From a plasmid: a stretch of 64,000 nucleotides of DNA. The position numbers are program-made. The stretch lies in sequence record LC799789.1; one strand, written 5' to 3'. Of the stretch, positions 43,801-52,800 are shown in pieces; position 1 is the first letter of the stretch; the number at the start of each line of letters is the position of its first letter.

Positions 43801-46800
43801 GAACCAACAGAGCCAAGCGAACCAACAGAGCCAAGCAAACCAACAGAACCAAGCAAACCAACAGAACCAAGCGAACCAACAGAACCAAGTACACCAACGG
43901 AACCAAGTACACCAACGGAACCAAGTACACCAACAGTACCAAACAAACCAGTAGACACAAACCCAATCGAAAACCCAGTTAATACAGATACAGGCGTTGT
44001 GATTGTTGCAGTTGAAGATAGTAAACCGATTATTCAATTAGCAAACGGAACAACAAAGAAAGTTGAAGCTAAAGAAATTGGTGCAAACGTTCAAAAAGAC
44101 GGAACAGTAACGGTTAAAGGTTCAGACGGAAAAATGAAAGTTTTACCAAAAACAGGAGACACAGAAAATATTGCATTGTCTGTCCTAGGGTCATTAATGG
44201 TATTAGGATCAGCATTCATTTTTAAAAAGCGAATCTAATTAAGTATTTATAAAAGCGTGGTCGCAAGTTTCACTAGCAGCCATGCTTTTATTGAATCATT
44301 CTAGGACGTTTTGAAGGGGAATGTATACCTTAAAATTAAACAAGCGCTTAGAATCGTTCTAGGCAACACCAATAACATATTGCTAGTAGGTCGGCTTTTC
44401 TTTTCACTTGTTGCGAATACAAGCGTGTGAGTTAGAAAGCAACTTGCTTGCCATCGTCTAATCATCTAACCAATGATCAACTAATGTGATTATTAGAACC
44501 ACTAAAAGTGGTGCGATAACTAACGAGATAGGTTCTGTTGCAAAGTTTTCCAAAAAATCTATTTTAGTGTAACATTGAGAAAAAAGACAGAGAGGACAAT
44601 ATACTGCAAAATAATATTAAGTAGTGGGGGGGACTTATTGAGTATGGGGATTGTAATGAGGCAGTATAATAATTTTTATATAAAATTTCAAAGACAGTTT
44701 AAGAAAGCTCATGGACAAGTTATAGAAACAATGCCATTAGAATTTTCTAATAAAGAATATATAGAACGCTTTAAATATATGTTTCCAGATAAAATATTGC
44801 TGATAGAGAGGGAAAGAAATTATTGGTATGGAAAACGTATTATTAGAAAGAATCTTTCCAAAATTCGATGTAAAGGTATGTCTTTAGAAACTGATAGTTT
44901 TATACTTTCAACTTCAAAACATATTAGGAAGATAAAAAGAGAGAGTCTAGCTAGTAACGAAGAGATGGTAAAAAAAGTAAATACTGCCCGAACAATATCT
45001 TTAGAAAAATTAAAAGCAGAGTCCTTGAGAAGCAAGAGAAAATTAAATTATATTCAGGAAGTTGAACCTCCATATTTAAGGAATTATCGAAATAGATTCT
45101 TTAAAACTCATGATTTACATGAACGATTGGAAATTATAAGAGAACTTTCTAAGTATGATTCAAAAGAAGTTCGGGAGTTTTTCTATGCAATAAATGGGCA
45201 TATTAGAAATCAATCATTAAAAATAGAAGTTCAATCATATTTTCAGAGTTTATCTTTACCTTTTAGGTTGAGCAGAAAAAAGAAAGGTAAGAAGAATTTT
45301 ATTGATAACGAAATTGTAAAAAATAAAAAAGGACCAGATGAATTGAAAAAGAGATTATATATTAATGATTTAGAAAAGATAAAAAGATTTGATATATTCG
45401 TATCGCATAATTCTAGAGACGAAGAAAAAATTATAGAGTTCTATAAAAAGTTCAATAAAAAAGGACAGGTAGTTTATATAGATTGGATAAATGATAAATA
45501 CGATTTAAGGCGTGAATGGTGCAATGCCTCCACAGTTGATATTATCAAGGAGCGTATAAAACAATCAGATGTTTTTGTATTATACTTTTCAGGAGAAACT
45601 TTGAATTCCCAATGGTGTACTTGGGAATTGGGATATGCTGACGCATTAGGGAAGAAGATATGTGTTTACTTCTCAGAAGATATAAATAGAAAAGGTATTC
45701 CAAAATTCTATGTAGCTTATCCTGAATTGCAAATGTCAAAAAATATATATGTCAAAATTAGAGGGAACGAAGATATTTTACTTAAAGAGTGGAAAAAATT
45801 ATAGGCTTATAATAAATTAGAAATGAGGGTAATATGAGACAAGAATTATTTATAAAAAAATTTTCGAAAGCTATACAAGAAGGAAATGCAGCAGTGTTTG
45901 CTGGTGCAGGAACATCGGTCGATGCAGGATTTGTTAACTGGAAAAACCTTGTAGCACCGTTTGCGAATGAAATTGATTTAGATATTGAAAAAGAAACGGA
46001 TCTTGTAGGACTGACTCAATATTATATCAATAAAAAAAGAAATAGAGGTTCGGTGAATCAAGAAATAATTGACCAATTTTCTAGTCAATATGCAGAAACA
46101 GAAGTTATGAATCTGTTAACACGACTTCCAATTTCTACATATTGGACAACTAATTATGATAAGGTAATTGAAAATGGCTTAAAAAATAATAATCGCAGAG
46201 GAGATATAAAAAGGAAGACAGATGATTTAGCAATCAGTATTCGTGATAGCGATGCGATTGTTTATAAGATGCACGGTGATGTAGATTCACCTAATGATGC
46301 AGTTATTTCAAAAGATGATTATGAAAGATATAGCGAGAAAAACTCCCTATTTGTAACAGCTTTACGAGGTGACTTAGTTTCCAAAACATTTTTGTTTGTG
46401 GGGTTTGGTTTTGAAGATCCTAATTTAGAATCCATCTTGGGAAAGATAAAAAATTTACTTGGGGAGCGTACTAGAGATCATTATTGTATTCAAAAGAAGG
46501 TATTAGAGCAAGATTATAAAAATCGAGAGGAATATAGCTATGCTAAAATCAAACAAGAATTAAAAATAGAAGATTTGAAAAGGTACGGTATAGATACAGT
46601 TCTAGTTGATGATTATTCTGAAATACCTAAGTTGATATTAAAAATAGAGGAAGAGTATTTTAAAAATACAATTTTTATTTCAGGTAGTATCTCCGATTAC
46701 AATGAAAATTGGAGTCAAGAAAAGGTAAATCAATTCTGTTATAATTTATCGCGTTCACTTGTTTCAAAAAATTATAAAATTATATCAGGGTTTGGACTTG

Positions 46801-49800: not shown

Positions 49801-52800
49801 TTTCAGTATTACAGACTATTTTTTGCATGAAATTATTAATTTCTTTTTCAATCTGATGTTTTTGAATTATCTTTGAAAACTCACAATCAACAACAGGGGT
49901 AATCCCAGTTTTAGATTGAACTATTTTTTTTACAGAACCTAGTATGTCATTTACTTTTTCTCGAACTTTGTTATTCTGTTGTTTCTGAACAAACAAATTC
50001 CTTACTTCACTATATGTCTCAACAAAAACTCTCCTTTTTTCAACTGAATTACTTAACAGCTCCCATAAATCTGGACTATTAATTAAATCAAGTAATTTGT
50101 ACAAGTGTGTTTCTAAGTTTTTTGTGGAAATTTCTTCAAGATTCGATTCTTTAATAAGTTGATATTTGGAAGTTGAGTTACTTGTAGTCGAATCTTTGGC
50201 GAATTGCTTCACACTTTCAACAAATTTTTCTACGTCTTGGTTAAAATCTTCTTCATTATTTTTTAGATAGTCTTGAATAGCAGAAAACTGCGAGTCATAC
50301 CGTTTTTTCCATATATCTAACGCATTTTTCCCTTGTTCTGTTCTTTGTTTTTTTATAAAATCATTGGCATTTGATGTTTCAAATTGAGCTATCTCATAAA
50401 TATCTTCATAATCATAATATTTTTTTATCGTTTCTAAAAAATTGGTTTTCAGTACCTCGTTTACCAACAATTAAATTTAATCCAGTTGAAACAGTGTGAT
50501 TTTCAATATCGATTACGTCCCTCAAATATCTAAGGTTTATACCAACTTTTGTTTTATCCATTAAACAATTCTTTATTTCTTGAAACGAGCAATTGTCAAT
50601 TTGTAAGTACGTATTTTTATTTTTTAATATTTCTATATTCTTCCTTTTTTCTTCAGGATCATTATCATCAGCGTGCGCATCACTAAATAATACTGGTGTT
50701 AAAGCATCTTCTATTCTATAAAAAGTTTGAAATTTCAATTGATTTGCTACTCCACCAACAGAACAAATAGATTCCAATTTTTCTGGTACTGATAAGGCGT
50801 TACTTTTTCCTAGTTCAAAGATATAAATTCCATTTTCCCAATTACTCATGTGAGTACAAAAATCTTCAGTAGATACTTTTCCGTTCTGTCCTAAATTTTG
50901 GGTAGATAGCCATTCAGAAAAATGAACTAGATTAGGACTATCTTCTTCTGGAAAAATAATATTTACATGTCCCTCTTCAAGACTCAGTTCTATACCTGGA
51001 AAAACCTTAGTATTTGGCAAATCATACTGGATCTGTTTAAAATTACTTTCATCAAATAAATCGTGATTAGTAATAGCAATTGCGTCTAATTCAGCTGCTC
51101 GAACATATTTCTTTAGCCACTCTGGAGAATAAGAAAAATCATAATCTTTATGACTAGAAACCGTGTGGATATGAAAATCAATTTTTTTAACCATATGTAG
51201 ACCTCCATAATAATTTGGAAACTCATGTCTTGATTATATCATGTAAACGCTGACTAATATGCTTGATATCCGCCATACAAACAACCACTCAGTGACATTG
51301 ATTTTAGAACTTGTTTGCGGCAATATAAATCCTCCTCTAATTTATTTAAATTAAGGATCTTCGAAATGGTTCTGTTGCAAAGTTTTAAATAAAGAATAAA
51401 ATCCCTTACGGTATCTATGATTTAAGCTGGGATTCCCAATAATATCTTGATTTCAGTACAGACCGAAAACCCGAAGAGAGTGCCTTCTTTTCGGGTTTTC
51501 TTATATAATCCTCGGATGGCTTCCATGCCTTTAATCGTGGTAGAGGCAGTGCGTAAACTTCGATAGAATTTATTGCGTCTCTTTACTGGACGATGGTCTT
51601 GTTCAATCAAATTATTCAGGTATTTAATGGTACGATGTTCTGTCCCTTGATAAAAGCCGTATTCTTTTAGTTTCTTAAAGGCACTTGTAATAGAGGGGGC
51701 TTTATCTGTGACTACAACCTTCGGTTCATCAAACTGCTTCACTAACCGCTTAAGAAAAGCATAGGCTGCTTGTGTGTCCCGTTTTTTACGTAACCAAATA
51801 TCCAAGGTTAAACCATCTGCATCGATGGCTCGATACAAATAATGCCATTTTCCTTTAATTTTGATGTACGTTTCATCCATTTTCCATGAATAAAAGGATT
51901 TTTTATTTTTCTTTTTCCAAATTTGATAGAGTAGTTTGCCATATTCTTGCACCCAACGATAAATCGTCGTATGAGAAACGTTAATGCCACGATCATATAA
52001 GATTTCTTGAACTTCACGATAGCTAAGGTTATAACGAAGATAGTAGCCCACGGCTACAATAATCACATCCTGCTGAAATTGCTTTCCTTTAAAAGGATTC
52101 ATCGTCATTCCTCCTGCTATCTTTTTCTATTATTCTACCTTATTTGATAGTAGATTTAAAACTTTGCAACAGAACCGTTAATTATATAGACTGAAAATTT
52201 TGAATTTTCAGAATAGAACAACTTAAAAGTACTGACAAAATTTTTTAAAGGGGCAATATTAATGTTCTGAGATAATCAAATCTTACCGAAAATCTCAAAA
52301 GTCCAATGTGACACAAGCTGATTCTGTCACATTCGTTAAAATCGCTCCATCCTTAGAGGCTCTAAGAGGAAATCACTTTTCTTTTAGGGCCTTTTTTCTA
52401 TAGCTTGTTTAAATGTGACTTATTATCTGTTATAATCATATTAAGTAACATTTGAGAGGGGACTAAAAATGAAGAGCGTGGAACCGATTCGCGACAAAAA
52501 AAAGATCGATGCCATGAAGGCCATTTTGGCTTCCGGAAAATATGGGCAACGAAATTTGGTGCTTTTTTCAATCGGGATCAATACAGCCTATCGAATCTCC
52601 GATTTAAGGCAGTTGAAATTAAGTGATGTGTTAGAAATTTCCCGTGGGCGGGTGATTGTCAAAGAACGTCTGGCCATGAAGGAACAAAAAACGGCCAAAC
52701 ATAATTCGGTCTTCATTTCAAACAAATTACGAAAAGTGATTCTCGATTATGTCCAATCCGAATTTCCTGAGCAGCTGCAAGTACATGACTTCAGCAAATA

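Follow-up and report, generated by a model that had tools for sequence, protein, structure and literature searches.

How did a set of anti-phage defence genes come to lie between the conjugation genes of an enterococcal plasmid and a tyrosine recombinase gene? We addressed this question in a 64,000-nt stretch of plasmid record LC799789.1 (the window, to which all coordinates refer), in which a Thoeris module and the candidate defence system PDC-M49 follow an Inc18-type conjugation (tra) region and end at a complete copy of the insertion sequence (IS) IS1216. The original prediction held that IS1216 had delivered the whole cargo of about 6.8 kb to a pIP501-type backbone in a single event, leaving a solo terminal repeat as a scar at the far border. 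Our analysis confirmed part of the observation and supported part of the IS1216-delivery interpretation. It favours, with a probability of roughly 0.7, a defence region (44531-52176) built stepwise by IS6-family and resolvase events rather than by one insertion. Relatives were drawn from PLSDB plasmid records, a public assembly collection and metagenome contigs, defence genes and domains were called with PADLOC and Pfam models, respectively, and the island was inspected in seven loci of sister plasmids. No PLSDB record covered at least 80% of 42500-54500.

The 19-bp repeat GGTTCTGTTGCAAAGTTTT was found exactly three times in the window, at 44531-44549 (plus strand), 51368-51386 (plus strand) and 52158-52176 (minus strand). 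No further copy was present in the window even with three mismatches allowed, and shuffled sequence yielded 0.04 matches. The second and third copies are the ends of the complete IS1216, whose predicted position (51363-52169) was off by 5-7 bases:

51368-52176, minus strand: complete IS1216, 809 bp, with perfect 19-bp terminal repeats
51422-52108, minus strand: the single transposase of IS1216, a DDE enzyme of the IS240/IS26 type (Pfam DDE_Tnp_IS240, 8.6e-42)

This structure agrees with the published description of IS1216 as an 809-bp element with perfect 19-bp terminal inverted repeats (PMC6952201), and annotated IS1216 copies are 99-100% identical to it at the DNA level. Its right inverted repeat (IRR) end faces PDC-M49, and its left (IRL) end faces the tyrosine recombinase region. 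No 8-bp duplication of the target site could be seen around the element, the flanks TTCGAAAT and GTTAATTA being different; such a loss is expected after cointegration, recombination or deletion and is therefore no argument against its identity as IS1216.

The copy at 44531 is, as predicted, identical to the IS1216 terminal repeat. It is not a bare repeat, because IS homology runs on to 44598:

44531-44598, plus strand: left-end stump of an ISS1N-type IS6-family element, 68 bp, 67/68 identical to annotated ISS1N

The references for this match, pIL5 of Lactococcus lactis and pK21EFM001 of Enterococcus faecium, are annotated as 'ISS1N family transposase', and the same end is carried by about 1000 PLSDB plasmids at 96-98% identity. 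Both ends of IS1216 part from the stump after base 19, so that the two match only over the shared repeat and the supposed IS1216 scar is the remnant of a different element, which also lies in inverted orientation relative to IS1216. The stump stops five bases short of the position of the ISS1N transposase ATG and thus encodes no transposase. A simple promoter scan revealed no convincing plus-strand promoter for thsB within it, and the stump as a source of the Thoeris promoter was left unsupported by that scan. Truncated IS6-family ends were also observed in pDM86-poxtA (5743-5978, a 236-bp IS1216 end fragment directly against a full IS1216) and in pEc378 (13049-13074, a 26-bp repeat fragment directly against a full IS1216), which indicates that IS stumps are commonplace in such plasmids.

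The left border was then compared with Inc18-type relatives. Homology to pV662optrA, E. gilvus, a Listeria plasmid and others ends exactly at 44530, within a toxin gene:

44458-44530, minus strand: remnant of the fst type I toxin gene, codons 4-27 (Pfam Fst_toxin, E=4.5e-7)

The relatives run ...CTAACGAGATA/ATTTGTTCCAT... unbroken across this point (5 PLSDB records), and in the window the fst-side sequence directly before the IS end is GCGATAACTAACGAGATA. The prediction had placed the 19-mer at the junction between the end of the tra operon and the island; the junction is genuine, and its position is 292 bp beyond the traO-like stop codon, within codon 4 of fst. The start codon and promoter of fst are replaced by the stump. 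The intact gene of pV662optrA translates to MEQIISLVIAPLL... and the window version to ...EPISLVIAPLL.... A 92-bp stretch of pV662optrA and pEc378 is missing from the window at fst; judged by its position and promoter-like sequence, it looks like the promoter region of the antitoxin RNA. The metagenome contig scan returned 0 matches to the junction of fst with the inverted repeat. An in-frame TTG within the stump could in principle restart the fst reading frame.

A chance occurrence of the 19-mer at a border unrelated to insertion sequences has next to no probability. Nothing beyond the shortness of the motif speaks for it, only 0.04 matches are expected, an IS end can be followed for 68 bp in the match, and homology to the unbroken relatives breaks off precisely at the repeat's first base.

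At the right border, the IRL end of IS1216 is joined to GTTAATTATATAG... at a point some 290 bp upstream of the gene for the tyrosine recombinase:

52177-53588, plus strand: right flank with the region of the tyrosine recombinase (gene at 52469-53068); its lineage differs from that of the island

Relatives run ...CTGAATATAA/GTTAATTA... unbroken across 52176/52177. In PLSDB, this site is unbroken in about 283 records and occupied by IS1216 in 10, and the IRR-side DNA was unrelated in the two of these ten that were inspected (L006, L007). The IRR-side neighbour of IS1216 thus varies among plasmids, and the IS1216/recombinase junction also occurs in plasmids without the island. On the other side, the IRR end meets PDC-M49 where pEc378 is unbroken, the junction reading CTTCGAAAT/GGTTCTG. 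Since relatives (pV662optrA, pEc378 and others) are unbroken at each border, both borders are true IS-end junctions. The predicted IS6-family termini at both ends, and the status of the island as an acquisition relative to related plasmids, were thereby upheld.

The two borders do not add up to one insertion. In pV662optrA they lie 1.47 kb apart, separated by the rest of fst, a helix-turn-helix (HTH) gene, a small open reading frame (ORF) and a bacteriocin immunity gene, and this 1.47 kb of backbone is missing from the window between the borders. No 8-bp duplication was found at the island borders (flanks ACGAGATA vs GTTAATTA), and the single precise empty site proposed at 44531/52170 was not found in the relatives compared. 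The backbone continuation beyond the left junction and the pEc378 sequence beyond the PDC-M49/IS1216 junction were both sought across the 64-kb window and were absent, so that no reciprocal products lie within the 64 kb.

The source of the stump became apparent from the relatives of the Thoeris module, which extends from 44599 to about 48037:

44644-45804, plus strand: thsB (TIR), first Thoeris gene, 386 aa (PADLOC ThsB, 1.2e-189; Pfam TIR_2/ThsB_TIR)
45834-47246, plus strand: thsA effector (SIR2 and STALD/SLOG; PADLOC ThsA, 8.2e-198; Pfam SIR2_2, STALD)
47246-47866, plus strand: second thsB (TIR; PADLOC ThsB, 4.4e-119)

By domain content and gene neighbourhood, the module is a type I Thoeris with a predicted anti-phage function, in which a signal produced by ThsB would switch on the NADase of ThsA. 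The first thsB has a mechanical ORF that begins at 44575; its length of 386 aa is that assigned by gene callers. In a Lactococcus petauri plasmid, the stump lies upstream of a thsB-thsA-thsB set that is 99.1-99.3% identical to that of the window, and stump and Thoeris also occur together in L. lactis plasmids and in a lactococcal-type metagenome contig (L109). In all three, 247 bp of a pezT 3' fragment separate the stump from Thoeris; this fragment aligns with positions 154-198 of the 199 in Zeta_toxin, and its DNA is 71% identical to annotated pezT. Compared with this form, the stretch between two GAGGACA heptamers is exactly what the window is missing. Gut-metagenome contigs carry a continuous pezT frame directly upstream of Thoeris and no stump, which looks like the older arrangement.

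The window's own 68-bp form of the stump was found in an Aerococcus contig (L035, 9171 bp), with Thoeris 99.5-99.7% identical. There, 122 bp of L. petauri-type flank precede the stump, and the contig starts and ends in IS1216 sequence of the same orientation, indicating either a unit bounded by IS1216 or a circle that carries a single IS1216. Taken together, these comparisons assign the stump to the Thoeris module, with a probable inheritance from lactococcal-type DNA rather than from the plasmid backbone. The proposed search for the island flanked by IS1216 elsewhere was thus borne out for Thoeris alone, in Aerococcus, and not for the whole unit, which was never seen at a second site among the contexts inspected. 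A perfect hairpin with a 17-nt stem (47979-48022), downstream of the second thsB and just upstream of the palindrome described next, may be a terminator.

Thoeris gives way to PDC-M49 at a short palindrome:

48025-48052, no strand: res-site-I-like palindrome TGTCCATAAAATAGTTCATTTCTGGACA, 28 bp, at the seam between Thoeris and PDC-M49

The homology switches inside this palindrome, its left half belonging with L. petauri and Aerococcus and its right half with pEc378. The L. petauri copy is located 130 bp upstream of a gene for a serine resolvase (PF00239), the expected place of res site I. It is the sole copy in the window, where no second res-type palindrome or reciprocal hybrid site was found, and no resolvase gene adjoins it there. 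From its sequence and position, we infer that the seam arose by a serine-resolvase crossover. Exchange of modules at serine-resolvase res sites is known from mosaics of Tn3-family transposons. The present seam resembles such exchange in the two-donor homology switch at the centre of a 28-bp palindrome and in the position of that palindrome, which in one donor occupies the distal end of a resolvase gene's upstream region; it differs in having no transposon context.

To the right of the seam, the PDC-M49 module (about 48038-51367), together with two small ORFs, is 99.3% identical to pEc378 of E. casseliflavus:

48253-48477, minus strand: zinc-ribbon protein, conserved with M49A/B in pEc378, L017 and L021
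48528-48881, minus strand: hypothetical protein, conserved with M49A/B in pEc378, L017 and L021
48889-49173, minus strand: PDC-M49B (PADLOC PDC-M49B, 3.3e-40)
49154-51194, minus strand: PDC-M49A ATPase, split into 50412-51194 and 49154-50470 (PADLOC, 9e-301 and 2e-136)

PDC-M49 is a PADLOC candidate system, defined by adjacent M49A ATPase and M49B genes, both of which are present. M49A is split in the window by a 2-bp loss (CCC to C) at 50449-50450 relative to pEc378; it is intact (680 aa) in three sister plasmids (L011, L012, L014) and broken elsewhere in others (224 + 424 aa). The genes of pEc378 and of two further contexts run in the order traO-like, fst, HTH, small ORF, immunity gene, tyrosine recombinase, Fic, res-like site, PDC-M49 and resolvase, which indicates that PDC-M49 is native to such plasmids at a position downstream of the recombinase. 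The window has it on the upstream side of the recombinase, with IS1216 between them. A 21-nt inverted match (95%) was also noted between the left end of PDC-M49 (48169-48189) and a stretch upstream of the tyrosine recombinase gene (52365-52385).

These findings bear directly on delivery of the entire 6.8-kb cargo by a single IS1216 translocatable unit, with the 19-mer as the scar of a second copy, a history that we consider very improbable. The 19-mer is indeed an IS1216 terminal repeat at a true junction, IS1216 is known to form cointegrates and translocatable units (PMC6952201), and Thoeris is bounded by IS1216 in Aerococcus. However, the remnant is of ISS1N type for 68 bp, accompanies Thoeris in Lactococcus plasmids without IS1216 beside it, and is inverted relative to IS1216, so that the predicted translocatable-unit structure, with two directly oriented copies of one IS around the cargo or one IS plus cargo beside a resident copy, is not present. 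The cargo, moreover, comprises two modules that have separate origins and meet at a res-like site, and the borders lack a target site duplication, a precise empty site and contiguity in the relatives.

The role of IS1216 was further delimited by comparison with sister plasmids. A ThsA identical to that of the window is indexed in 197 blocks of the assembly collection, and the contexts inspected all have the same arrangement and junctions. Against two of them (L010/L011), the window showed 97.3% identity in the tra region, 99.1% at the traO 3' end and fst, 100% in the stump and Thoeris, 99.85-99.88% in PDC-M49 and 99.6-99.75% in IS1216. To the right of IS1216, identity dropped to 93.8-94.5%, with the first differences 40 bp past the IS end, indicating that the history of the DNA changes at IS1216. 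Likewise, the recombinase region is 92-94% identical to pEc378-type copies, while PDC-M49 is 99.3% identical. This difference fits an IS1216 beside one recombinase lineage that joined PDC-M49 DNA by cointegration or IS-IS recombination. It misfits a simple permutation of one plasmid, and for the same mismatch we set aside a circular-permutation model in which a translocatable unit of IS1216, recombinase region and PDC-M49 was reopened at res. IS1216 occupies the same nucleotide (52177) in the same orientation in recombinase regions that are about 6% apart (window vs L010/L011); this repeated position reflects either an old insertion with homogenisation of the IS or a preferred target.

Evidence for the activity of this IS1216 came from pEF0656-2 (CP114619; also CP152090), a 45,954-bp vanA plasmid of E. 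faecium that is 99.99-100% identical to the window. It matches 1-25562 and 51365-64000, including 100% identity over the right flank (52177-53588), and lacks the DNA between:

25563-51367, no strand: segment absent from pEF0656-2, 25.8 kb

The absent segment holds the 5' part of merA, merR, the whole Inc18-type tra region, the fst remnant, the stump, Thoeris and PDC-M49. One end of the deletion coincides exactly with the IRR end of IS1216; the other cuts merA at 25562, a gene that is intact in the window (24528-26168). As the segment is flanked by only one IS1216, pEF0656-2 is best read as a derivative generated by IS1216-mediated adjacent deletion, and the deletion matches the published criterion for such events (PMC12711152). 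Criteria for copy-in, targeted conservative and deletion events of IS1216 have been described (PMC6952201, PMC12711152). These results show that this IS1216 copy has been demonstrably active in the plasmid lineage of the window and bear out the prediction in so far as it named IS1216 as a driver.

Combining the junctions, the module sources and the deletion relationship, all of which were observed directly, we propose the following stepwise assembly, in which the sequence of events and the enzyme responsible for linking stump and fst are inferred. Thoeris would at first have lain just downstream of pezT; an ISS1N-type element would have inserted into pezT and then been reduced to a stump of about 70 bp, giving the order stump, pezT fragment, Thoeris, res and resolvase on lactococcal-type plasmids. 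A 247-bp deletion between the two GAGGACA heptamers would next have taken out the pezT fragment, giving the 68-bp-stump form that is seen between IS1216 copies in Aerococcus. Thirdly, in an Inc18-type enterococcal plasmid, the tip of the stump's inverted repeat would have been joined to the fst toxin gene, and the opposite end of Thoeris would have been fused to PDC-M49 when a serine resolvase made a crossover at res site I. IS1216 would then have become the right border through cointegration or IS-IS recombination followed by loss of the intervening DNA, a course from which different histories on either side of the element are expected. Finally, IS1216 would have deleted 25.8 kb in a sister lineage, giving rise to pEF0656-2.

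Several points weigh against this stepwise assembly. No intermediate with a full ISS1N at the fst junction was found, nor was a PDC-M49-IS1216 pair in the window's arrangement without Thoeris. The island-bearing contigs seen all share their junctions, and none shows a step under way in enterococci; the data do not settle in which order the events took place; and the res-like site is recognised only from its sequence and position.

The joining of the stump to fst could have been brought about by a transposase acting in trans or by RecA recombination of the 68-71-bp stump with a full ISS1N present there. The outer flank of the stump differs among three contexts (...gccatac, ...aagaagcc and, in the window, ...acgagata), and the inner junctions are common to them. 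Two E. durans plasmids, in addition, have another IS6-type element, one with an internal deletion, at the very same fst nucleotide; in one of them (CP012367), this element (4433-4594) is 162 bp long, has both inverted repeats, resembles a miniature inverted-repeat transposable element and abuts the fst remnant.

These observations would suit a history in which the inverted repeat of the stump and the distal one of IS1216 (44531, 52176) are the ends of one 7.65-kb 'IS1216 with cargo'. The IS1216 transposase would have moved this unit whole into fst, or made an intramolecular deletion via the stump end, and a later adjacent deletion would have removed the 1.47 kb together with the duplication. 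The two repeats do form a perfect inverted 19-bp pair with one transposase gene between them, the transposase-less stump has the breakpoint exactly at its tip, the outer flank of the stump has changed at least twice while the inner junction stayed constant, and another IS6-type end occupies the same nucleotide in E. durans. Against this, no target site duplication was found, the unit was never at a second site among the contexts inspected, the IS1216/recombinase junction occurs in island-free plasmids, and RecA recombination of the stump with a full ISS1N accounts equally well for the flank changes; to our knowledge, targeted reactions of the IS26 family also need active transposase genes in both partners. 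We therefore regard this history as unlikely.

A related and similarly doubtful idea is that the 68-bp, one-repeat ISS1N stump serves as a working end for an IS6-family transposase supplied in trans, for example from IS1216. A working end would explain both the flank that changed at least twice and the IS6-type element at the same fst nucleotide in E. durans. If this were true, stump, Thoeris, PDC-M49 and IS1216 would form a mobilisable defence unit, and heterologous IS6-family members would exchange partners exactly at their tips.

The stepwise assembly resembles the cointegrates, translocatable units and pseudo-compound transposons of the IS26 family (IS1216, IS257, IS26; Harmer and Hall; PMC6952201) in the IS6-family termini at both borders, the unlike histories on either side of the IS, the deletion in the island lineage that ends exactly at the IS end, and the Thoeris bounded by directly oriented IS1216 in Aerococcus. 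Unlike those systems, the island has one intact IS, an inverted 68-bp ISS1N stump at the other border, no 8-bp duplication and an inner seam at a resolvase site. Similarly, it shares with the pRUM-like plasmids of E. faecium (PMC12711152) the host group and the IS, backbone deletions beside IS1216, cointegrate-type mosaics and Tn1546/vanA on the replicon, whereas its cargo is anti-phage genes rather than resistance genes, and an Inc18/pIP501-type conjugation module is fused here to a vanA plasmid. As for Thoeris itself, domains and neighbourhood match the type I system (ThsA SIR2-SLOG with ThsB TIR) in PADLOC and Pfam at very low E-values, whereas here two ThsB genes flank ThsA and the module is plasmid-borne and linked to an IS stump.

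Among enterococcal plasmids, cointegration and deletion by IS1216, remnants of IS elements and exchange at res sites are textbook processes, and the value of the island is that of a documented example rather than a new principle. It offers a junction-by-junction case of Thoeris and the candidate PDC-M49 reaching a conjugative vanA enterococcal plasmid lineage, the former from lactococcal-type DNA, through the IS6-family and resolvase machinery by which resistance genes are shuffled as well. The origin of pEF0656-2 indicates, in turn, that IS1216 is able to remove a conjugation module and defence genes in one step. A search of a literature library on Thoeris with IS1216 in Enterococcus and on PDC-M49 returned nothing relevant; the island, common as it is in public assemblies, is not described there.

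Two further features were observed in the adjoining tra region. An IS110-family element (40349-41966; transposase 40470-41705, minus strand) lies in the 16-bp gap between the TrbL-like and TcpC-like genes; it is present in one sister plasmid (L013) and not in L010-L012 and L014. In the traO-like LPXTG gene, repeats of 9 bp form a long array (43497-43740), and its protein ranges from 243 to 294 aa among sister plasmids.

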